Shown: positions 29,156 through 46,582 of the stretch, piece after piece
How the letters are laid out: every line of letters begins with the position of its first letter
How positions within the stretch are numbered: the stretch's first letter is position 1
NCBI GenBank assembly: GCA_004298665.1
Contig: SCQY01000092.1
Coordinates: forward strand, 1-55,998
Direction of reading: 5' to 3'
DNA from: a bacterium
Lineage (GTDB): Bacteria > Vulcanimicrobiota > Vulcanimicrobiia > Vulcanimicrobiales > SCRA01
Length of the DNA: 55,998 nucleotides
Program-made: the position numbers and the translations under genes
Notes under the pieces: model-generated
The model's input: only the letters and a program-made list of their open reading frames with translations
Told to the model about the DNA's origin: nothing
Database searches by the model: none

Positions 29156-29543
29156 ACGGCCGCACCATCAGGCGGTGGGGAGCCGCGTCCTGTGAGTATG
29201 CTCCCGCGATAACGCGACCGGAGCGACGTCGCGCGATGAGCCTGTCTACACCCCGTGAAGTATCTGAGGCAGAGAACCCTGTCGGGAGCAGGCGATTGCT
29301 CGGATCCGGTGGGGAGAGGGCATCGTGCGCGGGGTAGGTGGAATGTCACGCCGGGTGATTCCAGAGCCCGCGGTATAGAGATCTCCGAGAGATTCGGGTG
29401 CCTCCGCCAATGACGGTGTACTCGGTGTCGCGATACACGCCCGAGCACAATCGAGTGCTGGCGGCAGGAGCGTGGCGGGAGAGAGCAGGAGAGTACCCGG
29501 AAACCCGATCCCCCGGGCATAGAGATGAGACGAAAGGATAGCA

Positions 29544-29975
29544 ATGGTAAGCGAGACGAGGAGCCCGGAGCGTACGAAAGCCGGCGCGGAGATGACCGTG
29601 CGGCAGCTCTACGACCACCTAATGCTCGAGCGCGCGAAGATCGACCGTCAGCTGGAATCCCTTCGCCCATTCCTCCCCGAGCTTGGCGCTACGGCGCCCG
29701 CCGGCGCCCTTCCTCCCCTACCCGCATTACCGGCGCAAGGTCGGAAGGCGGGTAGTACACGCGGAGGCCGGCGCAATATTCCCGTCGCGGAGTTCATCCT
29801 TGGCCGGCTCAAGCGCGATGAGACGACCGCACTCTCCGCGCTAGCCGATGCACTCGCTGCGGAGTATCACCTTTCGAAATTTAAGGGCCGCGAGAAAGTG
29901 AAGTCCTCCCTGAAAGACCTAGTTCGCCGGGGGAGAGTGGTACGCGGCAGCCCTGGGGCGTATCGACTCCCATAG
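29544..29975 (+). CDS. Putative DNA-binding protein (coiled coil + winged HTH)
   Basis: AAAGGA RBS; N-terminal coiled coil; VKSSLKDLVRRGRVVRGSPGAYRL wing motif. Confidence 0.6.
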   Translation: MVSETRSPERTKAGAEMTVRQLYDHLMLERAKIDRQLESLRPFLPELGATAPAGALPPLPALPAQGRKAGSTRGGRRNIPVAEFILGRLKRDETTALSALADALAAEYHLSKFKGREKVKSSLKDLVRRGRVVRGSPGAYRLP

Positions 29976-30004: not shown

Positions 30005-30038
30005 CATGGCCGGTGTAGCATAAAATACACCGGCCATG
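30005..30038. repeat. Perfect 13-bp inverted repeat with an 8-bp asymmetric spacer (loxP-like geometry)
   Basis: CATGGCCGGTGTA GCATAAAA TACACCGGCCATG. Confidence 0.95.
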
Positions 30039-30112: not shown

Positions 30113-30907
30113 ATGAACGGTGAGAATGGCTCAGGGGGAGACCGCACGATAGTCCGGCCCAACGCCGTTACGGCGCCGGGCTTCACGCCTGAAGCCTTCG
30201 ACGCGTCTCGCAGCGACCTTGAGCTGGCTCCACTTCCCGAGGATAGCTTTGGCGATGCGCTTGATCGCATCGACGCGCTAGTGGAAACAGTCAAGCTCCT
30301 CTTCCGGTGGCTGATACGGCCACTCGCTGTGATTGGGTGCCTATTGGCGCTGGCCGCCGTCGTCGCAGTTCGGCAGTTATCCGTCAAACCAAATGTCGTT
30401 CCATACGTTCAGGTCGTACGCGAGCGTTGTCTCGATATGAAGTGCCGGTCAATCGAGCGCGATGTCAGCGCACTGCAGCCAGTGGCGACTGATGAGCGAT
30501 CGAAGGACATCGTTGCGCGAGCCCTTCTCCCAGTCATCGTCCATCAGATGTTCGCCGTGTCTACCCCGCAACAGGACCAGTACGACTGGAGTCACGACGT
30601 CCTTCCCTTCATTGCCACGAACTCGCCCGCCGCGACCTTCGCGGCAACGTATCTTCAGAAGAACCAGATCGGCGCGTTCGCCGGCCACGGCACGGTGAAC
30701 GTGAGCGTCGATCCGGTCGATCCCCCGAGCGAGCCGAACGTCTACCTCGTCTCGTGGACCATGCAGACCGTGGCTCTTGATGGTACGGCTGCCCAGGCCC
30801 AGCGCAGCTTCGCACGGATCACCTTGAAGTGGGGGACGCCTACGGGAGATAACCGCAACGGGCTCCTTCTGGAGTCGATCGAGCTTGTGACGAAGGGGAG
30901 TAATTAA
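30113..30907 (+). CDS. virB8: VirB8/TrbF-like T4SS inner-membrane protein
   Basis: Single TM followed by VVPYVQV; NTF2-like C-terminus YLVSW...NRNGLLLESI. Confidence 0.75.
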   Translation: MNGENGSGGDRTIVRPNAVTAPGFTPEAFDASRSDLELAPLPEDSFGDALDRIDALVETVKLLFRWLIRPLAVIGCLLALAAVVAVRQLSVKPNVVPYVQVVRERCLDMKCRSIERDVSALQPVATDERSKDIVARALLPVIVHQMFAVSTPQQDQYDWSHDVLPFIATNSPAATFAATYLQKNQIGAFAGHGTVNVSVDPVDPPSEPNVYLVSWTMQTVALDGTAAQAQRSFARITLKWGTPTGDNRNGLLLESIELVTKGSN

Positions 30908-30930: not shown

Positions 30931-31824
30931 GTGGTGATCATACCAACCCCTCAGCCGATCTCTCTCCACTCCCCGGCGCCAATCGCAACCCCAAGACCGG
31001 CGATCGCGACGCCCGCGCCGAGCCATCCGCAAAGTGGCGACGTGTACGTCGATGGGCAGGGCGTGGTTCGTACGATCTACTACGCCGGTGGTTCCATCGT
31101 GGTGAGCTGTGCGCCCAGCTCTACCTGTCGCGTTGAACTTCCGGCGGGCTCGGCCGTGAGCGGGGTTCTCAATCCTACGCCGGCGTGGCACGTGACGCCG
31201 GATAACGACGGGGCCACCCCCATGGTACTCGTCGTCCCCGATCCTGGGGCGCCCGATGCGGGGATCGTCGTGCAATCCAAGGCGCGGAGCTTCGCGATGA
31301 GGCTCCACCTTGATCCCGCTGCCGTGAACGCGACTTACGGGTATCTCTTTCCCGACCATGGTCGGGTGGTGCTCCCCAGCGCGAAGCCCGTGGAAGTAAC
31401 ATCCGAGGATGACCAGGCGAGTGCGGAGCCTTTCCAGGCGCCGATCGCGCCGGCGCCATGTCCCAGCGGCTACGCGATGACCTCGCAAGGCGATCCACCA
31501 TTTTGGCCTCGGCGCGTCTGGATCGCGAATGATGGCGTATCGATCGCGTTCTCGGCCAACGGCGTCATCCCCGTCGCCGCCGTTCCCCTCAGTGGCGCGC
31601 CGCTTCGCTCGCCGGTTGACTTGAGCCGCCTAGCGATGATCTCGCAGGCCGGGGAAATTGACGGCCAAGATCGCGTCGTACACGTGCTCGACTGCTATCC
31701 CACGATTGTGCTGTACCTCGGCTTTGGCAGGGATCGTCGCGCGGTGGTCCTACAGGCTCGTGCGGGAGGTACCCCTCAAGCCACGTCGTCTTCGCCAGCC
31801 AACCGCGACCAGGCCCAGCAATGA
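30931..31824 (+). CDS. virB9: VirB9/TrbG-like T4SS outer-membrane core protein
   Basis: VSCAP...RVELPAG, YAM..GDPPFWPRRVW..DG; lies between VirB8 and VirB10. Confidence 0.7.
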   Translation: MVIIPTPQPISLHSPAPIATPRPAIATPAPSHPQSGDVYVDGQGVVRTIYYAGGSIVVSCAPSSTCRVELPAGSAVSGVLNPTPAWHVTPDNDGATPMVLVVPDPGAPDAGIVVQSKARSFAMRLHLDPAAVNATYGYLFPDHGRVVLPSAKPVEVTSEDDQASAEPFQAPIAPAPCPSGYAMTSQGDPPFWPRRVWIANDGVSIAFSANGVIPVAAVPLSGAPLRSPVDLSRLAMISQAGEIDGQDRVVHVLDCYPTIVLYLGFGRDRRAVVLQARAGGTPQATSSSPANRDQAQQ

Positions 31825-33161
31825 GCGTTTCGACGCAACCAGGAGGGCCTCTTCAGCCGAAACTTTCCTGGCGCGGCCGGCTGGCGCGCACAGCGGTGAC
31901 GGGCGTCGTCGCGCTGGTAGTGCTCGCGCTCTTCTTTCACGTGGATCTCCTCGGCTGGTCCGGGATACACCTGTGGCACGCGGTACACCCAACGCCGACT
32001 GTCAGCCCGATTGCATCACCCTCTGCCAACAGTGATGGTCTCCTGGGTGCGGCGATAGCAGAGATCACCGGGCAACCCGTCCATCCGACTCGGACACCTA
32101 CTCCGCAGGTTGCAGCGCCTGCGGCCGCCGCCCCCGGTGTATCCGGGGCTGCGGGGCGAGCCGGTCTATTGACTCCTGAGCAGCAACGCGAACTGGCCGA
32201 GTCCAATCGAGTCATTAGCCAGGTGAACGGCTCCCCGGTGGACGCGAACCCATTTAGCAACCTCGGGAAAGACATCGCATACCGGGAAACCGCTCCGACT
32301 GCGCAGCCAGCGCCACCGCCGGCCCCTGCGCCGACATCACCTCCGGTGCCCGCGCTCGTGACGCCTTCCCCCCTCACGTCGATGGGCCCGCTCCTTTCGA
32401 ATCCGTCGGCCCCGTCCATGGTCGGGACCGTGCCAGGACAGCAGAGCGGAGCACTTCCCGTGTCGATAGCTCAACTCGATCGGGCTGATGAGGCGTCGTT
32501 TGTCCAAACAACACAAACGGTATCGCCGTATACCAGCGCGGAAGTATCGCCAGCGCGCTCGCCAAACGAGATCTGGCCGAGCGACGGGATCGATTGCACC
32601 CTCAAGAATGCGATCTATTCAGATCTCCCAGGGATAGCGATTGGTCTTATCGCGAAGGACGTGAAGAGCCATCTTCCGCCCCACAACATTCTGATTCCGG
32701 CGACCAGTGAGGTCTGGGGTCCGTATAACGCGCTGGTTGGGCAAGGTCAGGACGCGATGCAGATTCGCTGGGATGTGCTAGCCTACCCCAATGGCGCGAC
32801 TTTGCCGCTTCAGAGTGTGCAAGCTACGGACGCGCGTGGGCGTGCTGGCATTCCCGCGGATGTGAACAACCACGTCGGTCGCGTGTACACCAGCACACTG
32901 ATCGGCACGATCCTTTCGGTGGCTGGCGGCATTGCGGCCGCACGCGCTGAAACGGTCGGTACGCCGTCTGTCGGGCAGCTCTTTGGCGTGAGCGCAAACA
33001 ACGCAGTGCAGCAGCAAGCCTCGCAACGGATGAGCGCCGCACAAAGCATTCCGCCAACGCTTATGGTGCACGGCGGTACACCGTGCCACCTACAGTTTGC
33101 CGCAATTCAGATGCTACCGACCTACAGCGAGGTTGTACGCAGCTACGGGGCTAGCCGATGA
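31821..33161 (+). CDS. virB10: VirB10/TrbI T4SS core protein
   Basis: TM + Pro-rich linker; IYSDLPG, ILIPA...G.Y, RW....PNG, DARGRAGIPADVNNH, IPPTL. Confidence 0.9.
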   Translation: MSVSTQPGGPLQPKLSWRGRLARTAVTGVVALVVLALFFHVDLLGWSGIHLWHAVHPTPTVSPIASPSANSDGLLGAAIAEITGQPVHPTRTPTPQVAAPAAAAPGVSGAAGRAGLLTPEQQRELAESNRVISQVNGSPVDANPFSNLGKDIAYRETAPTAQPAPPPAPAPTSPPVPALVTPSPLTSMGPLLSNPSAPSMVGTVPGQQSGALPVSIAQLDRADEASFVQTTQTVSPYTSAEVSPARSPNEIWPSDGIDCTLKNAIYSDLPGIAIGLIAKDVKSHLPPHNILIPATSEVWGPYNALVGQGQDAMQIRWDVLAYPNGATLPLQSVQATDARGRAGIPADVNNHVGRVYTSTLIGTILSVAGGIAAARAETVGTPSVGQLFGVSANNAVQQQASQRMSAAQSIPPTLMVHGGTPCHLQFAAIQMLPTYSEVVRSYGASR

Positions 33162-33841
33162 TTTCACAGGCGGTGCTCGCCGGCGCGCTGTGGATCTTTG
33201 GGGTGTGCGCGCCCTCTGCGCCGCCGGCGCTGCTCGCCGGCATCGCGATGCAAGAGAGTGGCTTCGATCCGGACGCGATCAACGACGATACCATGCACAA
33301 ATCATACTACCCAGGGTCACCGAATGCCGCTGTGGACTTATCTGTGGCGTTGCAAGCGCACGGAGACCAGATCGACGTCGGCCTGCTCGGGATCGACTAT
33401 ACCGACTGGCAACGGCACGGCGTGCCATTGGTAGCCGCGTTCGATGAATGCACGAACGCACACGTGTCCGCAGAGATATTGATGGGCGACTACGCAAGTG
33501 CGACAGCCACAGGGTATCGCGGCGAGACGGCGTGGGTGGCAGCGCTCTCGCTCTACAACGCCGGTCGCATCACCCCACGCGGTCTCGCCTATGCGCGCTC
33601 GGTGCTTGCAAACACGCAGATGTTGTGGCCGCGGATCCAACTTGCTATGCGCCGGCCCACTGCGTCAGCCGCCTCCGCGCTGATAGCCCAGCAAGCCCCC
33701 GCTCCGACGAGCACTCCAGCCCCCTCCCTCACAGAGGCGGTACGTATTGCTCGCGAGCGCCAAACCCAAGCGTCACGCGCCTATGCAGCGATCGAGCGCG
33801 CCGTCCAAGCGCGTACGAAGGCGCAAAGAGGAGCCCCATGA
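33158..33841 (+). CDS. virB1: VirB1-like lytic transglycosylase
   Basis: CAP, QESGFDPDAIN, IDVGLLGI, AFDECTN, AALSLYNAG. Confidence 0.88.
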   Translation: MISQAVLAGALWIFGVCAPSAPPALLAGIAMQESGFDPDAINDDTMHKSYYPGSPNAAVDLSVALQAHGDQIDVGLLGIDYTDWQRHGVPLVAAFDECTNAHVSAEILMGDYASATATGYRGETAWVAALSLYNAGRITPRGLAYARSVLANTQMLWPRIQLAMRRPTASAASALIAQQAPAPTSTPAPSLTEAVRIARERQTQASRAYAAIERAVQARTKAQRGAP

Positions 33842-35328
33842 CCGTACCCGAGCAAGCACTTCCGGCTGCCTCGGCAGACGTCTCGCTAGCGCCCGAAGCC
33901 ATGCGTCGGGCGCTCGGCCGCATCGGGCTTGGCGCGGCATTACGCGAACGGATCATTCCGATCTCGCTCGCGCGCGGGCGTCTCACGATTGGCGTTGATG
34001 GCGATACCAAAAAAGCCATCGCGTGGGCACGCGTACATGCTGGATTACGCGACATTGTCGCAGTTCCACTGGCTACTGCGCAAGTAAGCGCAACGTTACG
34101 CGAGCTGCGCGCTGCGAACGCTTCGCCGCCGCTTAGCCGTGCCGAGGAGCAGATCGCGCGCGCGGTCACAACCGTAGCGATCGGCGGCGGCAGTGATCTC
34201 TTTGCGCTGCCTGACCAGACCGGTGTTCGACTCATTGCGAAGATCAACGGCGCAGCGCGTGAGATCAGCCGAATGGACAGCGCGACGTATGAGCAGTCCC
34301 TGATCGCAGGGTCCGTATCGGGTCACCTCGGTGGTACGGCGCACCTACGCGAGTCACAGAGTTGCGGCTATCAGATCGACTACGACGCTGTACGCGTTTC
34401 TTGCCGCCTTCGCACGTACCCGCGAACGATCCGGATCGGTACGGAAACGAAAATCGTCCCGGCACTGGACTTCCGTATCCACCCGGACCAGGACGATCTC
34501 CCGCGTCCAGACGAGCTCGGTATCCGTGCCGAGGCGATAGCGGCATTACGCCGGGTACTGGCCGAGGAACGGCTTCCAGTCTTAGTAAGCGGGGAGCCCG
34601 GTGTCGGCAAAACGACAACTCTTTTTTCCATTCTGCGGGAGATTGCTAAGGTCTGGCCGTTCATCTACACGTTCGAGGCACCCATTGAGATGGTCGTCGA
34701 CGAGCTCATCCAGCGCGAAGTTCCGACAATCTCAGATGCCATCCCCGACCGTGAAGCCCTGTTACAGATGAACCCGGATATCGTGTTCATCGGTGAAGCG
34801 CTCGGCCGCGGCTCCTTTGCACCGTTGCTTGATTTTATCGAGACCAATGTGCCAAGCGTGACGACGCTTCACGAGCGCACCGCTCTAGGCGCGCTCTACC
34901 GGGCAGTCCAGCTCGGTGGCGATCGCTACCTCACGAAGGCCAGGCTCATATGGTGCCAAGCGCTCATCGCGCCGGTCTGCCACAACTGCGGTACGCAAGG
35001 CTCACCGAGCGCGGCAGTGGAGTATCGGTTTAAGCTCCACGAGACGCCGCCCCCAACCACGACGTGGCGGCGAACAGTGGGGGCCGACTGCGCCTATTGT
35101 CAGGGGCTCGGGGTGACTGGTCCTCGTCGTCCACTGGTGGAGTTCTTCCACGTCAATGCCGGGGTCCGCGAGGTAGTCCGCGGTGGAGCATGGAACCCGG
35201 GAGCGCTGCGCAAGCTCGTCTACCCCTCCCCAGAGGGGATGACCATTGCCGGATCCGGGGCAGAAGCGCTCCGCGCAGGGGAGATCGACGAAACCGAGTT
35301 CCTTAGGCTCGGAGACGACCTGGTGTAG
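33838..35328 (+). CDS. pilB: PilB/GspE-family assembly ATPase
   Basis: SGEPGVGKTTTL Walker A, EAPIE, NPDIVFIGE Walker B, TTLH, CHNC...CAYC zinc motif. Confidence 0.85.
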   Translation: MTVPEQALPAASADVSLAPEAMRRALGRIGLGAALRERIIPISLARGRLTIGVDGDTKKAIAWARVHAGLRDIVAVPLATAQVSATLRELRAANASPPLSRAEEQIARAVTTVAIGGGSDLFALPDQTGVRLIAKINGAAREISRMDSATYEQSLIAGSVSGHLGGTAHLRESQSCGYQIDYDAVRVSCRLRTYPRTIRIGTETKIVPALDFRIHPDQDDLPRPDELGIRAEAIAALRRVLAEERLPVLVSGEPGVGKTTTLFSILREIAKVWPFIYTFEAPIEMVVDELIQREVPTISDAIPDREALLQMNPDIVFIGEALGRGSFAPLLDFIETNVPSVTTLHERTALGALYRAVQLGGDRYLTKARLIWCQALIAPVCHNCGTQGSPSAAVEYRFKLHETPPPTTTWRRTVGADCAYCQGLGVTGPRRPLVEFFHVNAGVREVVRGGAWNPGALRKLVYPSPEGMTIAGSGAEALRAGEIDETEFLRLGDDLV

Positions 35329-36473
35329 TGCACTCGAAGGAGAAGGAGAGTAGACAAGTGCAGCCGATCGATGGGAAGCTTGCCCCCTTTGACGGGCGCG
35401 GCGAGCGTTTTGCCGGCAAGGCGGGTTTTGGCGCGTACTGTGAACAGCTGCGCGAGGCCGGCGTGTCGGACCTCATGATTCGGCAAACGCCACTGCGGAT
35501 CGCGGTCTGTACCCGCGCCCGGTTCAGGCGCTTTCCTGACGAGCTGGCACCGTACGCGCTCGAGTGGCTGCGTCATTTCGAGGAGCTTTATCTGAAGCCG
35601 GGTGTGCTGCAGGATCGTTGGAATCGTGAAAAGACGCTCGATGTAGCTCACCGCCTCCCAGGCGGAGGATTTGCGCGCCTGCACTTCTGGCGCCAGGGTG
35701 GGTTGAACCTGAGCGCGCGGATTCACCCGGCGCATCCGCCTTTGCTTGACGATGTGCTCCCTATCGAGAGTGAACGCGAGGAACAGATTCGCAGGGATCT
35801 GATTGCTATGCTTACACGCCGCCAAGGGCTCATTGTCATAGGCGGCCAGGTACGATCCGGCAAGACGTGGCTCGAGCACGCGCTGTACGATTACCTGAAT
35901 CGTCACACGGAGGGTGGTCACGCATGGCTGATCGGAGATCCACTCGAGTTTGAGCACGAGGACGAGGGCTGGATTTTCACACCGAACGATGTGAGCGAAC
36001 GCGGGACCACTCAGGATTATGAGATCCGCCGGTCGTTGCGCGTCCCGCGCACGCTTATCGGCGTCGGCGAGATGCGCGGGGACACCGCATCAACCGAAGC
36101 TACGCTTACCGCGGCACTTGCGGGAACGCTGGTCGTCGCTACCGGACACTTCTCCGATGTGCAGGACATCGTTTCGCGCTTCTCGCTTGGGTCGGCGGCA
36201 ATGAGTGAGCAGAGCAAGCGCAGCGTCTTCCTCGAGGCCTTGCAAGGCGTAATCCACTTGGCGCTTGCGCCGGGGATCGACGGCCGCGAGGTACTAGTAG
36301 TCTCCTACACCGATTTTGGCCAGCACGCGAATCTCAAGACGGACCTGGCCGAAGGCAAACGCGTGGGGCCGACAACAATCGACGTCGGCTATCGCCCGCT
36401 TGCGGCGGATGCGGCGCTGCTCGTTTCGAAGATCGGCCGCGACGCGGCTACTGCACTTGGGGCGCGAGTGTAA
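35328..36473 (+). CDS. pilT: PilT/PilU-family ATPase
   Basis: QGLIVIGGQVRSGKT, DPLEFEH, IGVGEMRGD, LVVATGH. Confidence 0.8.
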   Translation: MHSKEKESRQVQPIDGKLAPFDGRGERFAGKAGFGAYCEQLREAGVSDLMIRQTPLRIAVCTRARFRRFPDELAPYALEWLRHFEELYLKPGVLQDRWNREKTLDVAHRLPGGGFARLHFWRQGGLNLSARIHPAHPPLLDDVLPIESEREEQIRRDLIAMLTRRQGLIVIGGQVRSGKTWLEHALYDYLNRHTEGGHAWLIGDPLEFEHEDEGWIFTPNDVSERGTTQDYEIRRSLRVPRTLIGVGEMRGDTASTEATLTAALAGTLVVATGHFSDVQDIVSRFSLGSAAMSEQSKRSVFLEALQGVIHLALAPGIDGREVLVVSYTDFGQHANLKTDLAEGKRVGPTTIDVGYRPLAADAALLVSKIGRDAATALGARV

Positions 36474-37685
36474 ATGCCGATCTATCGCGTTACGTCGGTA
36501 ACCGAGCAGGGCATTCCGCAAACGGGTGAGCGATACGCCAGGGACTTGCGCGAGCTCGCCGATCGTGAGCGCGCCGCGCGCCGCCAGCTTGTCGATTGGG
36601 GCACGGTGCGCACGCGCCGAGTGCACGACGGAGCATACGCGCACGAGAAACAGCTCTTCTTTCACCGCTTTGCGCAGGCGATGCGCCACCGAGGGTACGA
36701 TCGGGCAACAACCGCGCAGTACCTTATGGAGGTATTTCCCGAGCGGGACAAGCGCTCACATCAGCTGATGCGAAGCGTGCTTTCGACACTCGCTGAGACA
36801 GAGCTACCACTAGCAATGTCCCAGCATCCACAGCTCTTCACGATCGAGGAGGTCGAGGCGGTCGCTGCGTCACGGAATGTGCGCGAAACGCTCTCGATGT
36901 TGGCACGCACGGCGTACGACCGCCGCTCGCTCACGCGCGAGCTCGCCGCGATTATCACGGTGCCGGCGATCGTCGGGACGAGTCTCGTGTTCATCGGCGC
37001 CTTCGTGCTCTTCTACCTGGTACCGATGCTGGAAAGCAACGTATTCCCCTACACGCAGAACGTGCCAGCATTCTTTCAGTGGCTGAGCGCGGCGCGTGCT
37101 TGGCTGTTCCGCCCCCTCGATCTAGGCCTTGTGGTGCTCGTGCTTGCCGTCTTGTTTGCGGGGGGCATCACCCTGTACCAGGTACCGGCGGTGCAGGTAT
37201 GGCTCGTGGGACAGCTCTACCGGAACTCGCGTGGATACGGTCGGGTCCTGCATGGGTTCGAGCGCCGCCGGATTTACACGGCGTGGATCCAGACGCTCGA
37301 GTCGGAGGGGATCGACGCACTGATCGGGCGGGGAATGCAACTAGCCAACGAGGCTGGCCGCAGGGCGTTCAAGCGCGCCGCCGCGCGAGCTCCCCAGGGG
37401 ATCAATCCACTCACCCGCCTACGGGCCGCCACCCCGTACCTCCCCGCCCAGGAGGTGGGGTTACTGGTGGAGGGGTTCAGTGAGGGTGGAGTGAAGGCTA
37501 CCCGGGAGGTCCTGGAGGAGTTGGTAGCCGAGCTGAACGAGAGCATCCCCTTCGACATCGCTCAAGCAAAGGATGAGATACGGGTCGCCCTCACCGTTGC
37601 GCTGACCTCCATCATCATCACGGGGTTGGTTCTCTTCTCAGGTGCGGTATTCTACACACTGTTTCATTTACGGGCGAAGGGATAG
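36474..37685 (+). CDS. pilC: PilC/GspF inner-membrane platform protein
   Basis: MPIYR..., AMSQHPQLF, three TM segments with LVPML, position after the ATPases. Confidence 0.8.
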   Translation: MPIYRVTSVTEQGIPQTGERYARDLRELADRERAARRQLVDWGTVRTRRVHDGAYAHEKQLFFHRFAQAMRHRGYDRATTAQYLMEVFPERDKRSHQLMRSVLSTLAETELPLAMSQHPQLFTIEEVEAVAASRNVRETLSMLARTAYDRRSLTRELAAIITVPAIVGTSLVFIGAFVLFYLVPMLESNVFPYTQNVPAFFQWLSAARAWLFRPLDLGLVVLVLAVLFAGGITLYQVPAVQVWLVGQLYRNSRGYGRVLHGFERRRIYTAWIQTLESEGIDALIGRGMQLANEAGRRAFKRAAARAPQGINPLTRLRAATPYLPAQEVGLLVEGFSEGGVKATREVLEELVAELNESIPFDIAQAKDEIRVALTVALTSIIITGLVLFSGAVFYTLFHLRAKG

Positions 37686-37688
37686 GAC

Positions 37689-38219
37689 ATGCTAACGCTT
37701 GACCTAGCGATCTACCTGATGGCCATCATACTGCTCTTTAGCTCCACCGGGGGAGCAATCCCCGACGCAATTTCTGAGGTGCAACTGACGCGTGAAGTTA
37801 CCGAGCTGACGAACCTCGGGAATGGCTACGCCAGTCTGTGTAACCATACGAACTTTGTCTGCACAGATGTCTCGAGTGGCCAGCCACTAGCTTCCGGCGC
37901 CGCTCCAATCGAGGCCGGCTTCGTCTCGACCGTACCGACTCCGCCGGTCGGCGCCGGGGCGAAGTACGACATCGTGGTGACTGCGCTTTCGAGCAACTCC
38001 GCGGACAACGCTGTGGTGCCTTACAGCTCGGCGCAAATCGATGGCAGCCACATCCAGAACCTCGAGGCCTATACGGTGACCGCAAACGGCACGGCACCGC
38101 CGACAGTGGCGGATGACGGGACACCCAAGAGTGGGACGCTCTACACCCTAGCGTACGACTCATGCCTGAATGGCGTCATCGCCACCACCGCTACGACTCC
38201 GACGTCGTCATGCTCGTAG
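37689..38219 (+). CDS. Type IV pilin-like protein
   Basis: N-terminal hydrophobic helix (MLTLDLAIYLMAIILLF...IP), amphipathic alpha1-C, two Cys pairs. Confidence 0.6.
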   Translation: MLTLDLAIYLMAIILLFSSTGGAIPDAISEVQLTREVTELTNLGNGYASLCNHTNFVCTDVSSGQPLASGAAPIEAGFVSTVPTPPVGAGAKYDIVVTALSSNSADNAVVPYSSAQIDGSHIQNLEAYTVTANGTAPPTVADDGTPKSGTLYTLAYDSCLNGVIATTATTPTSSCS

Positions 38220-38614
38220 CCTCCCCGTTCGCGCTTGCGGCGCTCGCGCCGCTCGCGGTCGCCGCCGCGGTGAGCGATCTACGCACCCATCGCGTGCCTC
38301 TATCGTGTACGCTTGGCGGGCTGATCTGCAGCGCGGTTATCGGTTGGCAGAGGCATGAACTCGAGCTCTTCGCTGGGCTCGTAGCCGGCCTACTGGCCGC
38401 GTTCTTGAGCATGTTTCTCTTGGGCGGCCGCATCGGCGGCGCTGATATCCTCTGGTCGGGGATTATTGGCGCGGTCGCTCCCGTCGCCGTACTCGTGACC
38501 TGGGTGATGCTCGTGGCTCTCGTTGTGGTGGTCACTCGCCGCGGTCGCCCCGTGGGGCTGCCACTTGTACCTCTACTGGTGCTCGCTGGAACCGTGGGCC
38601 GCCCATGGTGGTAA
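38210..38614 (+). CDS. Prepilin peptidase (A24, short TadV/CpaA-like form)
   Basis: SDLRTHRVP and IGGAD aspartate motifs in a polytopic membrane protein. Confidence 0.8.
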   Translation: MLVASPFALAALAPLAVAAAVSDLRTHRVPLSCTLGGLICSAVIGWQRHELELFAGLVAGLLAAFLSMFLLGGRIGGADILWSGIIGAVAPVAVLVTWVMLVALVVVVTRRGRPVGLPLVPLLVLAGTVGRPWW

Positions 38615-39414
38615 CCGGCATCGATCTGCGCGGAGATCAGGTGGCCTGTGCGGTGATTGACTGTTCCCATGGCCACGCTCGACTGCGTGCGGGGGAGGTG
38701 CTACCAAGTGCGGCGCTTCCTGAACTCGCGATTTCGGGCACCACCATGCTTCTGGCAGAGGCAGAGCCATGCTATCGCGTGCGTCTCCAGTTGCCGCCCG
38801 CAACCAGGCTACCGAGTTACCAGCGCTACGCGGCGATCGCCGCTGCAAGTGCGGACCGGCCCGGTGGCAAGCGTAAGGCTGCAGTCGTCGAGCAGCGTGA
38901 TCGAGAGGTCGTCGTCGGACTCGCCAACCTAGAGGCCATGGGGCCGACGCGTGAACGAGTGGAATCGGCCATCGGAGTCTCGGTTGGTATCGCCGATCCG
39001 GCTGCCGCCTGGATGGCTCTGTGCGCGCTGCGCGGTGGCGGACCCGAGGTAATCGTCGACGATTGGGGTGACCCAGCCCAGGTGATCATCTGCGACCCCA
39101 AGGGGAGCTGGATCTTCTCCGAAGTGGAGTCGATCCCCCGAGGCTCGCTTGGGCAGCGTGCCGCTGCAGTCGCGACCATCCTCCAACAGGGAGTATTGAC
39201 GCGCCGGCCGGTACGCACGATCGGGGTCGCCGGTCGCCTCGTCGACGCCATAGATCTACTGGTCGCAAACCTCGGCGGCGACGTCGAGCAGATCGTACCA
39301 ATACCGCAGGCGCAGCCATGGTGGCCGAGCCTCGGAGCAGCGCTCGTTGCCGTTTCACCCCGACTCGAACACAGCTATGAGGAGCTCCGCAGTGATTCGA
39401 CGACCACGCCGTGA
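38605..39414 (+). CDS. PilM-like protein
   Basis: TGIDL N-terminal actin-fold motif, VIVDDWG, SLGAAL C-terminus; position. Confidence 0.55.
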   Translation: MVVTGIDLRGDQVACAVIDCSHGHARLRAGEVLPSAALPELAISGTTMLLAEAEPCYRVRLQLPPATRLPSYQRYAAIAAASADRPGGKRKAAVVEQRDREVVVGLANLEAMGPTRERVESAIGVSVGIADPAAAWMALCALRGGGPEVIVDDWGDPAQVIICDPKGSWIFSEVESIPRGSLGQRAAAVATILQQGVLTRRPVRTIGVAGRLVDAIDLLVANLGGDVEQIVPIPQAQPWWPSLGAALVAVSPRLEHSYEELRSDSTTTP

Positions 39415-39994
39415 CGGCGCGCGCCGTCTGCGCGCCATGCTCGTCTCCGCAATGCCGGGCATCGTCGGCGGCCTCTTCCTCCTCATCGGCAGTGCTCTCG
39501 CGCGCGCGCATGCAGGCGATCAGCTTTCGATAGCGCGGATTCACGCCGCGCAGGCGCCGGCGCCGTCAACCATCGATATCAGGAAGGCGATCACCGCTGT
39601 AAACACGGCAACGTCGTTGCTTGAGGACGCGATCACTACTCGGGATGCAGCAGTTGCGAGCGTTGCTCGCCTCGACCATCTCGCGGCGAAGCTGCCGATC
39701 GGAGCTCGCCTAGTAAGCTACAATGCCAACGGGTCGGTAACCGTCGAGGCGCTCGATCAGGGACTACTCGGCGAGACCGCCACTCGGTGGGCCGCTCTTG
39801 GTTACACCCTTAGCGTTTCGACGACACAACTCGGCGAGCCAGGGTCCGGCGTAAGCGCACCGATCGAGCCGAATATGCAAGTCACCGTCGCGGATCGTGG
39901 CGTGCCCTCTTCGACACCACACCCATACGCTCCATCGGCGATGCCCACACCCTTGGTGCATCCCGCTCTTCCATTTTCTGGAGTGCAAAGGTGA
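39392..39994 (+). CDS. PilN-like protein
   Basis: Basic N-terminus, single TM, coiled coil, LP.GARLVSY; position. Confidence 0.55.
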   Translation: MIRRPRRDGARRLRAMLVSAMPGIVGGLFLLIGSALARAHAGDQLSIARIHAAQAPAPSTIDIRKAITAVNTATSLLEDAITTRDAAVASVARLDHLAAKLPIGARLVSYNANGSVTVEALDQGLLGETATRWAALGYTLSVSTTQLGEPGSGVSAPIEPNMQVTVADRGVPSSTPHPYAPSAMPTPLVHPALPFSGVQR

Positions 39995-40602
39995 CCGCGC
40001 AGCAGCAGGCGAGATCAATCGCCGGCAATCCGGTATTCGTCGGGTGGTGTATCGGCGTCGCTTTCGCGCTCCTCTGCACGGTCGGAGCTGCTTCAAATTC
40101 TCGTGGGGCCCGTAGTGATCGCGAGGCGGCTGCGGACCTCCTCAATCACCGTCTCGAGGCGGCACAGGAAGTGGGCGTCCTCAATGATGCACGTGAACGC
40201 GCACGCTTGCTGATGCCTCAGCTTGTGCCGCTCTGCGCGTCGGCGCCGCCGGCGATACAAGCGTTGCTGGTCGTGACGGATGGCGCCCCAGGCCTCCAGT
40301 TACGCGTCACCAGCTCCGACACACCGCCAAAGGCGGAAGGAGGAGAGGAGACGGGAGCATTGCTCGTGAGCGCCACCGGAACTGAAGCTGACCTCGCGCG
40401 GTGGCTCATGCGCGTCGACAACAACCCCGATCTGCGCGACAGCATCGCACTGAGGAGCGTCGATCGTCCCGCGCAGAGTCAGGATACGCACGCGCCCGCG
40501 AGCGCGAGCCGGATAAGCGCGAACGTTCAGGTCGCGTCTTATGCAGTGGATTCGGCAATCTGTCGGGAGGTTCGGTCAGTTGCGGAACACGCGGAACACT
40601 AG
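39991..40602 (+). CDS. PilO-like protein
   Basis: Single TM, coiled coil, VSATGTEADLARWLMRVD. Confidence 0.6.
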   Translation: MTAQQQARSIAGNPVFVGWCIGVAFALLCTVGAASNSRGARSDREAAADLLNHRLEAAQEVGVLNDARERARLLMPQLVPLCASAPPAIQALLVVTDGAPGLQLRVTSSDTPPKAEGGEETGALLVSATGTEADLARWLMRVDNNPDLRDSIALRSVDRPAQSQDTHAPASASRISANVQVASYAVDSAICREVRSVAEHAEH

Positions 40603-41221
40603 GACGGCGCGCCTCACGGTCGGCCTCGTTGCTGCGGGCGCTGCTTTTTTCGGCGGCCTCGCGATGGTCGTGGCGCAAGGGAACCCACAGTCAGAGGGCC
40701 TACCCGCCCTTTCCGCGACGCCTCCCCACGCTGCACGCCTGAAAGCCGATGCGCTAGGCGGCGCGGTCTTTGAGCCGCTGGTGACCTTCCACGCCCCGGC
40801 AATACCAGCACAGAAGGGACCATCGAGTTCGAGCCCCGCCGCGGTGAGCGCCGTGAGCCTGTGCATGACTCTCTCTGGACATCCGCCGATCGCCGTGTTC
40901 TCGCTCGGCACAGCATACGAAAGCAAGTTCGAGCAAGAGTCACTCGTCGGCCGGAAGATCCAAACGATTGGCGGCGGCTGGGTTCGCTTCGATGACGGCA
41001 CGATGCTCGTGGAGAGCAACTGTGTGGGCAGCGCCTCGGCCGCAGGGGCGCCAACTCCGCCTACGACGTCGCTCTCCGGCGGGCTGTCACCATCCAGTGA
41101 TGTGAATCCGCCCTTCGGGCCCGGTGGTATCCCGACCCCAGCGCCGGGCCTGCCAGCTGGGGGGTGGCGGATGCAGACTCCCCCACTCTCTCCACCCCCC
41201 GCCCCGGAGGCTACCCCATGA
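40541..41221 (+). CDS. PilP/GspC-like periplasmic protein (start uncertain)
   Basis: TM then a beta domain (LVGRKIQTIGGGWVRF); directly before the secretin. Confidence 0.45.
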   Translation: MQWIRQSVGRFGQLRNTRNTRTARLTVGLVAAGAAFFGGLAMVVAQGNPQSEGLPALSATPPHAARLKADALGGAVFEPLVTFHAPAIPAQKGPSSSSPAAVSAVSLCMTLSGHPPIAVFSLGTAYESKFEQESLVGRKIQTIGGGWVRFDDGTMLVESNCVGSASAAGAPTPPTTSLSGGLSPSSDVNPPFGPGGIPTPAPGLPAGGWRMQTPPLSPPPAPEATP

Positions 41222-41271
41222 GATCCACCGGTTCGACTCGAGGAGTCCCACCAACCCACAAAGGACGTATA

Positions 41272-42747
41272 GTGCGCCACCAACCCCTCCTGATTACTCT
41301 CGCTCTGGCATCGGGTCTCCTCGCCATGGACGTCCTCCCTGGCTCCGCGCAATCCGTGCTCTCTACGAATGGGATCCCACTCTCAGCCGCCCTTTCGGCG
41401 ACGGCGCGCGCGGCAAACGAGCGGTTGTGGATTCTGCCCGGCACACCCAACCCGCCCCAGGTCGGCTCGGTTGTCGGCACGACCCCGCGTGAGGCGCTCG
41501 CTCGTCTGCTCGATCTCAATGGCCTTGTGGCCCGGGAGCACAACGGCGTGCTCGTGGTCGGAACGCCCCTAGCGATGGATGCCCGATTCGGATCCGGAAC
41601 GGCCCACGCGCGGCTCGTTCCGGTCGTGGGGTTGGACCCGCAGGTGGTCGTGCAGACGCTGGCGCCGCAGCTTCCGGCGGGGACCGTCATCCTACCGGAC
41701 ACGGCGCGCCACGCGCTCTACGTGTCGGGAACCACGATGGCGCTGCGCCAGGTGGAGTCTTTTGTGGCGCCGCTCAACCAAAGGCAACCCGACGTCGTTC
41801 GCTATCCGCTCCACAGCAGTGCCGACCCGGCGCAGGTGACAGCGCTCCTCGAGAAGGTCGCGCCGCCGGCAGCCCCTGAATCGGTGGTAGTTGATCCCGC
41901 GGGCGGGGCGGTGCTGGTAGCTGGGCCGCCGGGATATCAGGGCGAAGTCAGCGCAGCCCTGGCGCAGATCGATCGCGATCCAGCGCAGGTGAAGTACCAT
42001 ATCTCGGTCATCGAGGTTGACCCCGTACAGCTCGCCCATAACGTTGGCATCTCCGTCGGGCAGAGCCAGACCCAATATCAGGCGGTCGGGCAGTCTGCGA
42101 TCGGGCAGTTGTCGTCCCCGGCACAGGGCCAAGCGATCTTTGCGTTCCCGTTGAATCACGGGCTCTCGCTCAACGGCGAACTCGACCTTCTTGAGTCGCA
42201 CGGACAAGCGCGGTTCATCCGCGATCAAGACATCACCGTGGTGAACGGTACGCAAGGGGTGGCCGACTTCACGGAACAGCTTCCGTATCAGGTGACCACG
42301 CAGAACGGCTTTTCGGTCACGACTGGTACACAGTACCAGTCCTTCGGATTCACGATTAAGTTGACGCCGCAGATCGGCGATAGCACGATCGGCACCACGG
42401 CCAACGTGGTGTACTCAACGCTTGCTGGCTTTGGCGTCGGCGGTGCACCGATCACCACGACGCGCGGTATGACCACGCGCGTAACGACGACCGACGGTCA
42501 GACCTTTCTCGTCGGCGGACTGAAAGCGGAAGACTTTACGACGACGGCATCAGGGATCCCAATACTCGACAGGCTGCCACTGCTCGGGGCGTTGTTCCGG
42601 CATGCGCACGACCAAGACAATCAGCAGGAGCTCGTGATGGTAATCAGCGCGCAGCGCATTGGGGCGGTTGACGCGATAGATACCTCGCGCTATCCGCACG
42701 TAGCACCCTACGTGTTGGCGTCTCCGCTTCCAGGAGGCAAGAAATGA
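41272..42747 (+). CDS. pilQ: Secretin (PilQ/GspD family)
   Basis: Signal peptide, N-domains, IDRDPAQV, DGQTFLVGGL, GIPILDRLPLLGALFR, ELVMVIS; start 41272 (RBS) or 41218. Confidence 0.9.
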   Translation: MRHQPLLITLALASGLLAMDVLPGSAQSVLSTNGIPLSAALSATARAANERLWILPGTPNPPQVGSVVGTTPREALARLLDLNGLVAREHNGVLVVGTPLAMDARFGSGTAHARLVPVVGLDPQVVVQTLAPQLPAGTVILPDTARHALYVSGTTMALRQVESFVAPLNQRQPDVVRYPLHSSADPAQVTALLEKVAPPAAPESVVVDPAGGAVLVAGPPGYQGEVSAALAQIDRDPAQVKYHISVIEVDPVQLAHNVGISVGQSQTQYQAVGQSAIGQLSSPAQGQAIFAFPLNHGLSLNGELDLLESHGQARFIRDQDITVVNGTQGVADFTEQLPYQVTTQNGFSVTTGTQYQSFGFTIKLTPQIGDSTIGTTANVVYSTLAGFGVGGAPITTTRGMTTRVTTTDGQTFLVGGLKAEDFTTTASGIPILDRLPLLGALFRHAHDQDNQQELVMVISAQRIGAVDAIDTSRYPHVAPYVLASPLPGGKK

Positions 42748-45700
42748 TCATCTACGAGCTCGGTCGCAAGGTGGCGCCGCTGCTCGGCCCGCAGCTCGAG
42801 CGCCGAGGGCCTTTCGCGCCCGGCGACCGCGTGGCCGTGACTGTACCACTTGTAAACGAGCGCCAAGTTCCGCTCGAGCGCGTGCAAGTGCGATTCTGCG
42901 CCGACCATCCTGAGGTGCGGTTTGATCCGGAATCGGTGGACATTCCACTCGTGGGAGGCGGGGAGCAGCTACGCGTAGAGACATCGCTGCTGGTGCCACA
43001 GCTTTCGAGCGCAATCGAGAGCGTACGTGTGTGGGCTGTTCTTCACAACCAGGTAGTCGGATCGCTCGAGACAGCGCATGCTGAGGTACGGATTGAGTCA
43101 CGCGCGGCGCTGCGTGCCGATTGCGACGAGACGGATCTGATCATCACAAACGTCGGTACGGCGGCTGCGCGCGTCCACATCGACGGTGATCGCACGCTGC
43201 CACCGGACTGGACCACTGAACGGATGAATATCCAGCCAGGGGGGGAGCTACGCTTATCGCTGCCCATCGAACCACTCGGGGTGCTGCGTTGCATCGAGGA
43301 GACTAGCGGGGAGCGGACGGTGGTGATCGACCGGCGTTCCGGTGCGCAGCCGCCTCGCCTATCAACACGCGGTGAGGCTCGCGGACCTCAGAGCGGCGTC
43401 CGTGTCGGGGATCTCCTCCCAATCGCGATCGAGGTACTCAATAGCGGAGGACCGGCGTACGACGCCGAGATTACGCTTAACCTTCCGGGCGGAGTGACCC
43501 TACTCTCCGGCTACACCACACGCGACGACGTGCCGCTGCTGGACGAAGACATCGTGCGCCGGGGTCGACAGGTCGATATCCGTCTTGGCTGCATCCAAGC
43601 GCAGGAGCACACTGTCGTGCGCGGCGCGGCGCGGGTCGAGCAGCTAACGACCGAAGCCGATTCGCTCGCGTTTGCTGGTGAGGTACGAGCAGCCGAAACC
43701 AGCGATCAACTCCGCTTCGGTACGCGCGTTTTGCGTGCCCCGGCGCTTTCTGGGCACGGCACCTACTTTGCCCCTCTTCGAGAGGATGAGCAGGGTCTGA
43801 TCCATACGACCCTGACGATCACGAACGCCCACGGCGAGCCTGTCGATGGCGCACTGGCGCTAACCGCTCACGGCGCGCAGATCGAAACCGTCACGCGCGA
43901 GGGACGTTCGCTCGAGCTCGGCGCTGATGCAGTCGATTACGGAACCCTCGTGGAGATCGGATCGATCGCAGCACGCTCGCGCGTAAGTATGACGATCATC
44001 GCCTCGCGGATCCCACTCGCGAGCGACGTTGGCTTCGAGGCGCGCATGGTCGTTGGTGGACGGACGCTCCCCTTAGCTGAAGTGCACCAAGAGCTCGTCG
44101 CAGAGCCGCGCGTGTCACTGACGCTGCGGCCGCAGCGCGAGGCGCGCGTACGCGTCGGGCAACCTTGCCTCCTCGAAGTATCACTGGCCAATCACGGGTC
44201 AGATCCACTTCGGGGCGCGCGCTTGCGTCCCGTCGTCCCAGAAGGCGTACGCATGCGCCTGCCGGTGAAAGAAGAGGGGGGCTGGTATCCCCTCGCGGGA
44301 GCACTCGCGCCGCTCGGCGGCCGCACGGGGTTTCCACTGCTCGTCGAGTTGAGTGAGCCGCCCTATGGCAACGCAATCGAGGTTGCGATCGAAGTCGACA
44401 GCGACAACGCGCCTTTGGTTCGCAGCGAGGCCGTCGTAATCGCAACGCCGTCGTCACCGACCCTGATTCTCTCCGAGCCCGAGCTACGGGAGGTTGGCAA
44501 GCGTGGCCTAGTGGAGGTCCGGGTACGCGTGGCGAACCGTTCCGACGGCGTAGCTCGCGATGTCTGGCTCGCCGTCAGAGCAGAGGATCGCCCGGTGCCA
44601 TTCACCGCGACGCTCGATGCGCACTCCGTTGACGAGCGCGGCCGAGGCGGCTCAATGCTGTCGGAAGGGATGCCGCTGGGGGATCTGCCCCCGGGAACGC
44701 AACGTGACGTCGCGTGGTATGCGGCGCCAAGCGGGCCTTCGTACTATACTAAAATCACCGTTCGTGGTGAGCCCGGGATTCAGCGCGTCGTAGACGGCGG
44801 CATCGAGCTGGCCGATCAGGCGTGGTTCACAAGCGAGCCGCTTCCCGCGCGGCCGATCGACGAGAACGTACCCATCGCTGGGGTAACGGCTGCCGCACCT
44901 GATCCATTCCAAAAGGCGCTGGATCAAAGCCCGGACCGGGCTCTGGAAACGGCAGACGAACGACGAGCGCTCGGTTCTGGCGAAGAAGCGGGCACTCGAG
45001 CAGAAGCCGATGCCCTTGCGCCTACGCGAGGTATCGAGCCGTCCGCCCCCGCGCTGACAATGGGCTCGCCGAGCTTGTCGACGGAGGAGCCTGCGCAACC
45101 TCTTGCGCGGCCGATCGACGAGGCTCTCACTGTGGCACAGCACTCGTCCAGTCCAGTTGATACCCTCGTGGCATTCTTCGATAAGGTCGGGATGCCGAGT
45201 GGGGAGCCCTCACAGACCGACGAAGCCGCGGGCGAAGTATCTTCAGTCGCGTCTGAGGAGACGACGCATGACACAGATGTAGCAGCAGCTCCGGCAACGC
45301 AAATCGCGGAGTCGGGAGCCGAGGCAACGGCGCATCGCGAGGTGGAAGAATCGGCGCCGCTAGAGGACTCCGACCTGGAGGACGGAGAGAGTCCAGCGAC
45401 TCCACCACCACCAGAGCTCGCGCCGATCGATCCTGTCGTGGAGCGGCCGGACGCCTTCGGCCTGTCCTTCGGATTTTCGATTGTTGAGATGGTGCGTGGC
45501 ACGGTTCCGTCCGATATCTGGAGGACCGCGCTTGCGCAGGCGGTGGTGCTGCGTCTACTCGGACCTCGTGAGCCCGCGGTACTCGCGCGTCGCGACACCG
45601 TAGTTCAGTATGCGCCGCAGCTTCTCAGTGAGGGCATCACCGATGGAGAAGTGCGAGCCTGGTTCGCGCGGATATTGGCTGGGTGGTGTGGGGGAGAGCT

Positions 45701-45911
45701 AGGGCCACGAGCAGACGAAGCCGCCCTAGCGGCCCTACAAGGTTACACCGTCCCGAGTCCCTATGTCGGGGCATTCGACGACTACCTAGCGGAGCTTGAG
45801 GACACCTACCCGCTGCGCACACCAGGAGCCTATCTTGATGCGCTCGAGAGCGCGAGCGTACCCGGAGTCGTCGATGCACTCGCACAGCTCGTAAAGGCGG
45901 TCAGGCCATGA
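42744..45911 (+). CDS. Large protein with repeated Ig-like (DUF11/CARDB-like) modules and an acidic linker
   Basis: Repeated V.vGD..i.i.v.N.G..A....l.lP.G motifs; no signal peptide. Confidence 0.65.
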   Translation: MIIYELGRKVAPLLGPQLERRGPFAPGDRVAVTVPLVNERQVPLERVQVRFCADHPEVRFDPESVDIPLVGGGEQLRVETSLLVPQLSSAIESVRVWAVLHNQVVGSLETAHAEVRIESRAALRADCDETDLIITNVGTAAARVHIDGDRTLPPDWTTERMNIQPGGELRLSLPIEPLGVLRCIEETSGERTVVIDRRSGAQPPRLSTRGEARGPQSGVRVGDLLPIAIEVLNSGGPAYDAEITLNLPGGVTLLSGYTTRDDVPLLDEDIVRRGRQVDIRLGCIQAQEHTVVRGAARVEQLTTEADSLAFAGEVRAAETSDQLRFGTRVLRAPALSGHGTYFAPLREDEQGLIHTTLTITNAHGEPVDGALALTAHGAQIETVTREGRSLELGADAVDYGTLVEIGSIAARSRVSMTIIASRIPLASDVGFEARMVVGGRTLPLAEVHQELVAEPRVSLTLRPQREARVRVGQPCLLEVSLANHGSDPLRGARLRPVVPEGVRMRLPVKEEGGWYPLAGALAPLGGRTGFPLLVELSEPPYGNAIEVAIEVDSDNAPLVRSEAVVIATPSSPTLILSEPELREVGKRGLVEVRVRVANRSDGVARDVWLAVRAEDRPVPFTATLDAHSVDERGRGGSMLSEGMPLGDLPPGTQRDVAWYAAPSGPSYYTKITVRGEPGIQRVVDGGIELADQAWFTSEPLPARPIDENVPIAGVTAAAPDPFQKALDQSPDRALETADERRALGSGEEAGTRAEADALAPTRGIEPSAPALTMGSPSLSTEEPAQPLARPIDEALTVAQHSSSPVDTLVAFFDKVGMPSGEPSQTDEAAGEVSSVASEETTHDTDVAAAPATQIAESGAEATAHREVEESAPLEDSDLEDGESPATPPPPELAPIDPVVERPDAFGLSFGFSIVEMVRGTVPSDIWRTALAQAVVLRLLGPREPAVLARRDTVVQYAPQLLSEGITDGEVRAWFARILAGWCGGELGPRADEAALAALQGYTVPSPYVGAFDDYLAELEDTYPLRTPGAYLDALESASVPGVVDALAQLVKAVRP

Positions 45912-46582
45912 TCGCGCTGGCCATCATGGCTGTGAGTGCAGCGGCTTTTACTGCGGTCCTTAGCCGCCTGCTGCTCGCCGAGCCGCGCGTGACGGAGCTT
46001 GAGATCCCGGACGTGATCTCGCCGCTCGCACGTCGTGTCGCGCTGTCCCCATCGTCGCAGCCGCGGCAGCACGGGGTGCGCCGCAGCGTCGCACTGCGCC
46101 TCCCGCACCTGCATGTTCCTACCCTCCGACTCCCCCGGTTGCCACGGTGGCATGTACCGAAGCAAGCGTTTCGTCTGCATATCACCTGGCGCTGGCCGCA
46201 GGTACGCGTCCCGAAGCTTGCATTCCGCCTACCGGCGCGCGGTCGGGTGATCTCGCCTCCGCAGCCGGCGGCAGTTGTGCCCGCTCCTGAACCCGCTCCG
46301 GCGGCCGCTGCGCCACAGATCCCGGCGTGGCTTGCGGATCTCGACGTACAGGAGGTTCCGCCCGTTGATCGGCGGGTGTGGCTCTGCTGGCTGCACGTAA
46401 GCGCGTATGTCGGCGAACGCCGCGAGGCCTTTCTGACGCTCGTCGAGGAGAGCGACCCCGAACTCATCAGTGTTGCGCGTCTTGCGCGCCAAACGGACAG
46501 ACCGCTCGTCATTTACACCTTGGAGGAGGCGCAACGGTGGAGTCAGCAGATCGGGACGCAGAGCAGCTCCTCTGCCGCATAG
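45908..46582 (+). CDS. Membrane-anchored hypothetical protein with Pro/Arg repeats
   Basis: N-terminal TM; LP.L.VP repeats; ATGA coupling. Confidence 0.55.
   Translation: MIALAIMAVSAAAFTAVLSRLLLAEPRVTELEIPDVISPLARRVALSPSSQPRQHGVRRSVALRLPHLHVPTLRLPRLPRWHVPKQAFRLHITWRWPQVRVPKLAFRLPARGRVISPPQPAAVVPAPEPAPAAAAPQIPAWLADLDVQEVPPVDRRVWLCWLHVSAYVGERREAFLTLVEESDPELISVARLARQTDRPLVIYTLEEAQRWSQQIGTQSSSSAA

Follow-up and report, generated by a model that had tools for sequence, protein, structure and literature searches.

A perfect 13-8-13 palindrome ahead of a hybrid secretion/pilus operon as a possible lox-type operator of a Cre-like protein lacking catalytic residues

The loxP target of the Cre recombinase consists of two 13-bp inverted arms around an 8-bp spacer (PMC10250229, PMC11260471), and the spacer is given as 5'-ATGTATGC-3' in the extracts of the latter source. 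New sites of the Cre type have been sought as 13-15-bp arms with an 8-bp spacer lying at most 1 kb from the gene, and within the extracts of that study such sites are reported to lie immediately upstream or downstream from the recombinase gene, the active ones having in common T at position 7 and, adjoining the spacer, G(T)-A-T(G)-A (PMC10250229). A second described system is MrpR (YopR), the master repressor of Bacillus phage SPbeta, whose fold is that of a tyrosine recombinase and whose nearest structural matches include Cre. According to the extracts of the source, it no longer functions as a recombinase and exerts repression through SPBRE repeats that it binds in approximately ten promoter regions; it is less than 25% identical to recombinases and retains the tyrosine (PMC10516654). 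Owing to MrpR of SPbeta, a disarmed recombinase that works as a repressor is already a known kind (PMC10516654).

The locus considered here lies on a complete contig (C52) of 55,998 nt, the whole stretch of DNA that was analysed and is referred to as the window, from a 3.16-Mb genome of 362 contigs, about 90% complete, recovered from a groundwater metagenome. At positions 30005-30038 the contig reads CATGGCCGGTGTA-GCATAAAA-TACACCGGCCATG, taken directly from its letters. With Cre/loxP, as far as the cited extracts describe it, this locus shares the 13-bp arms, an A/T-rich asymmetric 8-bp spacer and the presence on the contig of a protein of the Cre family (P0009); unlike Cre/loxP, that protein is without equivalents of R173, K201 and Y324, and the site stands in a single copy 22 kb from the gene and carries TGTA beside its spacer. 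The likeness to MrpR, as portrayed in the same extracts, lies in recombinase homology combined with loss of catalytic residues, both found in P0009, and in the setting on a mobile element, and promoter binding and repression of the MrpR kind are proposed for P0009 by analogy. In contrast to MrpR, which keeps its tyrosine and has about ten sites on a phage, P0009 is a clear sequence relative of Cre that has lost the tyrosine, and one site is present here, on an element bearing pilus and secretion genes.

Palindromes of the KorA/KorB type on IncP and IncW plasmids are operators of small regulators ahead of conjugative-transfer operons. The present palindrome resembles them in heading a transfer/pilus operon beside a gene for a small protein with a DNA-binding fold, and differs from them in the unrelated protein family, the longer arms, the 8-nt spacer and the single copy in place of a regulon.

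The palindrome and its genomic setting

The palindrome and the hexamer within it are composed as follows.

30005..30017, no strand: left 13-nt arm, CATGGCCGGTGTA
30018..30025, no strand: asymmetric 8-nt spacer, GCATAAAA, A/T at 6/8 positions, 6/8 identical to the loxP spacer
30021..30026, plus strand: TAAAAT, -10-like, straddling the boundary between spacer and right arm
30026..30038, no strand: right 13-nt arm, TACACCGGCCATG

The arms are complementary at 13/13 positions with 8 nt between them, and the spacer GCATAAAA is not self-complementary, so the sequence, the geometry and the asymmetry put forward in the preliminary description hold to the letter. The same is true of its count of six spacer positions out of eight in common with loxP, because the published loxP spacer ATGTATGC, as it stands in the extracts of PMC11260471, is the reverse complement of the form GCATACAT used there. 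Among the 25 longest of the 92 inverted repeats in the window, the 34-base palindrome is the sole one with separate arms and 100% complementarity, and no other perfect repeat with arms of at least 11 nt around a loop of 3-12 nt was listed for the contig. A search of the window with the half-site returned at 0 mismatches both arms and nothing else; at up to 3 mismatches it returned 20 matches, the 18 besides the arms each having 3 mismatches, where shuffled sequence gave a mean of 14.6. Genome-wide, at up to 1 mismatch, three isolated single half-sites were recovered beyond the site, and a reversed control pattern gave 2. The site had been described as a single copy in the window, and this uniqueness extends from the contig to the genome as a whole: across the 362 contigs (3.16 Mb, ~90% complete) a second copy of the 20-nt core was absent at up to 3 mismatches. 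The exact arm pattern had no match in viral contigs, and a scan against Rfam gave no match near threshold.

Of 150 first-order Markov copies of the window, 8 contained any perfect repeat whose arms reached 13 nt or more around a loop of 3-12 nt, and 0 contained a perfect 13-8-13 repeat. The 3.16-Mb genome holds one other true 13-8-13 perfect repeat, on contig C144. Perfect repeats with arms of at least 11 nt and loops of 3-12 nt number 110 in the genome, and 73 of them are intergenic when placed against our own crude gene call (2804 genes, 83% coding); an 8-nt loop occurs in just 2 of these 73. The palindrome is thus a real, non-random feature that is unlikely to be due to chance. One public assembly, probably of the source sample, contains the stretch, and in it a single contig of 55,668 nt spans the site with no variants or alternative joints, the check having covered the three DNA runs listed for the stretch.

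Genes on the contig are nearly all on the minus strand in 3-27510 and on the plus strand in ~27474-52010, and the palindrome lies in the latter part, 29 nt 3' of the stop codon (29973-29975) of a 143-aa gene and 74 nt 5' of the ATG at 30113. No tRNA gene was found on the contig. No overlap was found between the contig ends, which thus give no sign of a circular replicon. The other cargo of the contig includes, at 8966-13021(-), 15154-15744(-), 19233-23689(-) and 25585-26295(-), a PRTRC cassette made of ThiF, Prok-E2_D and PRTRC_E, a gene for a single-strand-binding protein resembling DdrB, a helicase gene of the Strawberry-notch (Sno) type accompanied by one for a methyltransferase, and a gene for an ERF recombinase. 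The contig also has two RES/Xre pairs, the second at 2632-3791(-), and a gene at 665-1360(-) whose PF07737 match lies below threshold (20.4 bits against a cut-off of 27.4), which probably points to a zincin-like fold and no more.

The genes that follow the palindrome are arranged thus.

30113..30907, plus strand: first operon gene, 264-aa bitopic membrane protein, VirB8-like by position only
30931..46582, plus strand: tightly packed operon with VirB9-like, VirB10/TrbI, SLT transglycosylase, two T2SSE ATPases and T2SSF onward
within 30931..46582, plus strand: rest of the operon, with prepilin peptidase (short), secretin and a 1055-aa protein

After the membrane protein, the genes of the operon are separated by gaps of at most 23 nt or overlap. 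The VirB9-like gene matches PF03524 with 31.5 bits, under the 34.2 cut-off, and the VirB10/TrbI gene matches PF03743 at 1.9e-31. The operon is a hybrid in which VirB9-like, VirB10/TrbI and SLT genes run straight into genes of the type-IV-pilus/T2SS type. The preliminary description had placed the site some 75 bp before virB8; the distance agrees with the 74 nt measured to the ATG, and the gene name is not confirmed, since the product gave no sequence match in Pfam, NCBIfam or PDB and the label comes from its position ahead of the VirB9-like and VirB10/TrbI genes. One homologue of this VirB8-position protein was found (P0002, 52% identical), and neither the protein nor its alignment identified related loci in genome, metagenome or viral contigs. 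Across 401 genomes of the phylum, close relatives of it were confined to its own genome, with two others at E ~7e-4, and the VirB9-like protein had matches in 5 phylum genomes, merely 23-26% identical. In a search of plasmids, the VirB8-position and winged-helix proteins were without match, and the relatives of the VirB10-like and recombinase-like proteins were only ~25-32% identical.

Genes for VirB4, coupling protein and relaxase are absent from C52 and present on C280, C31, C227 and C266; an oriT was considered for the site and set aside, these genes sitting on the other four contigs instead. Genes of the HD-GYP type (HD_5) and GGDEF type lie 3' of the pilus genes at 46378-49711(+), which suggests control through c-di-GMP, and C227 has a similar pair of T2SSE and GGDEF genes. 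A second hairpin is predicted at 30078-30112(+), just before the ATG at 30113 and over the purine-rich stretch that would be the ribosome-binding site.

The -10-like hexamer TAAAAT that had been pointed out inside the site is indeed present, and the whole window has 4 copies of it on both strands together. One of these, at 7001-6996(-), provides the -10 element in a canonical GTGACA-N17-TAAAAT promoter, which stands 21 nt before a pair of Xre-antitoxin and RES-toxin genes at 6082-6974(-). For the hexamer in the spacer no -35 hexamer was found at a distance of 16-18 nt, a consensus promoter scan of 28000-32000 called none, and the 74 nt from the repeat to the ATG of the operon hold no recognisable promoter.

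A Cre-family protein that has lost three catalytic residues

The protein to which the site had been attributed is encoded at the far end of the contig.

52007..53050, minus strand: Cre-family protein P0009, 347 aa, without residues matching R173, K201 and Y324 of Cre

Taken as a single sequence, P0009 matches PF00589 with 35.5 bits, gives weak Xer matches and has no match to a recombinase in PDB. We collected 61 homologues of P0009 and aligned 20 sequences, namely P0009, its 4 closest relatives and 15 hand-picked from the other 56. Against PDB, the profile of this 20-sequence family matched Cre best (residues 34-327, E 1.8e-35); the 17 top entries were Cre or Cre-derived, with E values from 1.8e-35 to 1.2e-33, and XerD came thereafter at 7.1e-21. 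The protein had been called Cre-like on first inspection, and the name is correct, since among solved structures its family profile matches Cre best.

In the alignment, and in Cre numbering, P0009 has Ser at R173, Glu at K201 and Phe at Y324. The same three positions are occupied by Ser/Thr, Glu and Phe/Leu in P0009 and its 4 closest relatives, while the 15 others keep Arg-I, Lys and Tyr; three of the seven residues of the catalytic set R-E-K-H-R-W/H-Y are therefore gone from P0009, and the HxxR motif is likewise not kept among the five subfamily members. As far as can be judged from its residues, the protein at 52007-53050 is catalytically dead, and the suspicion that the recombinase was dead is borne out by loss of the R173, K201 and Y324 equivalents in 5/5 members of the subfamily. 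These five members (P0009-P0013) are 45-53% identical and come from separate assemblies or metagenomes. Such conservation across separate metagenomes is the reason why the five disarmed Cre-family proteins are probably functional non-enzymes. The alignment of the dead recombinase identified no related loci in viral contigs.

Three further members of the Cre family are encoded in the genome, on C350, C192 and C227. In the two paralogues on C350 and C192, Arg, HxxR, His and Tyr of the catalytic set are intact, and the C227 paralogue is, like P0009, without the tyrosine. Beside the P0009 gene (50500-54600), no repeat with a spacer of 8 and arms matching at 10/13 or better was found; the same search gave none in the flanks of two of the three paralogues and one G+C-rich match at C192, on a background of 0.5 per kb. 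On C227, GTAGGCTATA-CACTAAG-TATAGCCTAC at 23517-23549 (L026:9518-9550) forms a perfect repeat of 10-7-10 layout, whose spacer is A/T-rich and bordered by TATA, 27 kb from the tyrosine-less paralogue; it was rejected as a comparable site, since it falls between the gene for a YqaJ exonuclease and the one that follows, and not at a pilus operon. A GGTGTA-N6-TACACC repeat on C13 was likewise rejected as a related site, its chromosomal context being unrelated to the element.

The palindrome as a possible lox-type operator

We assign a probability of roughly 0.4 to the reading in which the palindrome is a lox-type operator for the dead Cre-like protein. The palindrome would then be a protein-binding site at the level of DNA, with one monomer clamped on each of its two 13-bp arms and the 8-bp A/T-rich spacer between them, and the likeliest binder would be the contig's own Cre-family protein (52007-53050), which, with three catalytic residues gone and the nucleophilic tyrosine among them, would bind DNA and be unable to cut it. 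A dimer on the site would cover the TAAAAT of the spacer, so that transcription into the VirB9/VirB10 and type-IV-pilus operon would be held down. The same sequence, when transcribed as RNA from the winged-helix gene, is predicted to form a hairpin of -26.8 kcal/mol and may additionally end that transcript. It can also be envisaged, tentatively, that a member of the Cre family was disarmed by loss of Arg-I, Lys and Tyr and kept as a transcription factor, its dimer sitting on an operator of lox geometry over a -10 element.

The interpretation offered in the preliminary description, an operator of the dead Cre-like protein, is in this way partly supported. Partial support for a lox-type operator comes from the arm and spacer geometry, the 6/8 likeness to the loxP spacer, the rarity of the site, the Cre-family profile and the precedent of MrpR, and the A/T-rich 8-nt loop, the apical A-T pairs, the stem G+C of 0.62 and the rare TAAAAT point the same way. 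Inverted arms within 11-15 bp and an asymmetric 8-bp spacer, as looked for in lox-like sites, are both present. Against a lox-type operator stand the 22 kb to the recombinase gene, where the extracts of PMC10250229 place lox-like sites within ~1 kb, and the want of a lox-like repeat beside that gene. The bases beside the spacer, TGTA, agree with the G(T)-A-T(G)-A motif at 3/4 positions, and a count of seven from either arm end falls on C, the T of the active sites being given at position 7 in the numbering of that source. There is one site in comparison with the ten or so of MrpR, TAAAAT has no -35, the position is typical of a terminator, and the product of the winged-helix gene immediately upstream is an equally natural binder. 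Neither a partner with the same spacer in the ~90%-complete genome nor a trace of recombination in the one assembly containing the stretch was seen, and a resolution site present once per replicon would look alike.

If the palindrome is unrelated to the Cre-like gene, ~0.02 repeats of the 13-8-13 form are expected on the contig, a rough estimate scaled from the C144 repeat. That a disarmed Cre-family protein should have retained a perfect lox-type site on its contig, yet far from its gene, was given a prior of ~1%. The odds given to the lox-type operator and to the three alternatives below follow from these two values being of similar size, and functions outside these four, or chance, take the remaining probability.

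Alternative readings and biological meaning

The strongest competitor, which we hold to be rather unlikely as the whole explanation, is that the palindrome acts as an RNA hairpin only, a factor-independent terminator or 3'-end stabiliser of the 143-aa transcript that insulates the operon, its lox-like dimensions being coincidental. The predicted hairpin of -26.8 kcal/mol has a z of -7.1 and was equalled in stability by 0/200 shuffles; among non-overlapping 44-nt windows of this G+C-rich contig its folding energy ranks 20th and is not conspicuous, which counts against this reading, most of the stronger ones being intragenic. Its place 29 nt after the stop codon fits the genome, in which 47 of the 73 perfect intergenic repeats follow a stop by no more than 100 nt (median 21 nt); the commonest setting among the 73 is between convergent genes (24), followed by co-directional ones (16 + 16). 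Hairpins also occur at other co-directional junctions of the contig, such as 25541-25584 and 2581-2624. A U-run is missing, with T at 4/8 of the first bases downstream, and this is normal here because a T/A-rich tail accompanies only 19 of the 73 repeats and is lacking in 54. Loops of 7-12 nt occur in 18/73, which speaks for a terminator, yet the 8-nt loop itself, shared by two of the 73 where 47 have 3-5 nt, and the A/U-rich apex with a stem G+C of 0.62 against the genome mean of 0.74 speak against it, as does a terminator consensus scan in which the palindrome was not called. A full stop of transcription at the repeat would moreover leave the operon without an obvious promoter, given that none is recognisable in the 74 nt before its ATG.

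For the most part, the genome's likely terminators have a perfect, G+C-rich stem closed by a loop of 3-5 nt and lack a U-tract. The palindrome is like these U-tract-less terminators in being a perfect hairpin 29 nt past a stop and without a U-run, and unlike them in its A-rich 8-nt loop, A/U-rich apex and lower stem G+C, and in lying within an array of co-directional genes where no promoter is visible beyond it. The readings weighed here are not exclusive, as such a site in the DNA would fold in the transcript from upstream as well. Were the repeat merely a terminator, the finding would be an ordinary one.

An operator of the protein encoded next to the site had also been named as an alternative at the outset, and two features upstream of the palindrome bear upon it.

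29375..29438, plus strand: possible degenerate copy of the module, ATAGAG-N33-CGGTGTA, GAGATTCGG and GTGTA-N13-TACAC, upstream of the winged-helix gene; weak
29544..29975, plus strand: 143-aa gene, product with a long N-terminal helix (likely coiled coil), a low-confidence linker of ~35 residues and a C-terminal winged helix

In this alternative, which we regard as unlikely and place below the terminator, the adjacent 143-aa protein would dimerise through its N-terminal helix, place its two winged helices on the two arms, and control the promoter of the operon and possibly its own. The direct neighbourhood of its gene favours the proposal, and so does the predicted fold: modelled with its homologues aligned, the C-terminal 60 residues form an H-S-H-H-hairpin arrangement at pLDDT ~88-91, where the single-sequence model (pLDDT 51) was unusable. 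In Foldseek, winged-helix domains came out best (cullin WHB, linker histone, GntR/YvoA, Zalpha); their TM to target of 0.6-0.7 weighs for the fold, and their E values of 0.05-0.2, every one above 0.001, weigh against it; weak matches to PqqD, itself of winged-helix fold, came from 3/3 members of the family, the best at 4.1e-5. Winged-helix folds serve roles other than DNA binding too. A dyad and a predicted winged helix are thus at hand, and the promoter is marked by the -10-like hexamer only.

Homologues of the 143-aa protein were none by word search and two small ones by full HMMER (39% and 32% identical), and its alignment led to no related loci in genome, metagenome or viral contigs. One of its homologues (P0005) and the homologue of the downstream gene (P0002) both trace to one JGI contig, 7444 nt long, for which reason their genes are probably neighbours there, a point in favour of the adjacent protein as binder. 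The degenerate GTGTA-N13-TACAC module upstream of the 143-aa gene would be a further one; the patterns ATAGAG-N33-CGGTGTA and GAGATTCGG, picked post hoc, have just two matches in the genome (2/2), namely 29375-29438 and the flank of the palindrome. In an unbiased local alignment, however, 50 of 1585 window tiles scored as well as the module, which lay outside the top genome-wide matches, and it was rejected as a true second module for lack of significance. Perfect 13-bp arms also exceed what a winged helix needs, and the exact 13-8-13 layout is left unexplained.

A live recombination site for plasmid multimer resolution or integration, served by an active Cre-family paralogue elsewhere in the genome, is highly improbable: the 13-8-13 geometry, the intact Arg, HxxR, His and Tyr of the C350 and C192 paralogues and the one copy per replicon expected of a resolution site (as loxP in P1) would suit it, and against it stand the dead recombinase of the contig itself, the mere 30% identity of the C350 paralogue to P0009, the lack of a similar site near the C350 or C192 paralogue and of a partner site in the genome, the uninterrupted 55,668-nt contig of the probable source sample and the contig ends without overlap.

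If the disarmed Cre-like protein was indeed kept as a transcription factor, half of a recombination synapse would have been turned into an on/off switch for transfer or pilus genes, and its family, of which five members have been seen at 45-53% identity, would set apart, as a class, mobile elements under this form of control. If the dead Cre-family protein binds the site, it would be a second, independent recombinase-turned-repressor after MrpR of SPbeta, and the first such case in which descent from Cre is clear and the lox-type target is intact, offering a stepwise view of a recombination site becoming an operator. It would also supply a naturally occurring Cre-like clamp that holds a defined DNA target of 34 bp without cleaving it, and would show where an unusual hybrid secretion/pilus operon is controlled.
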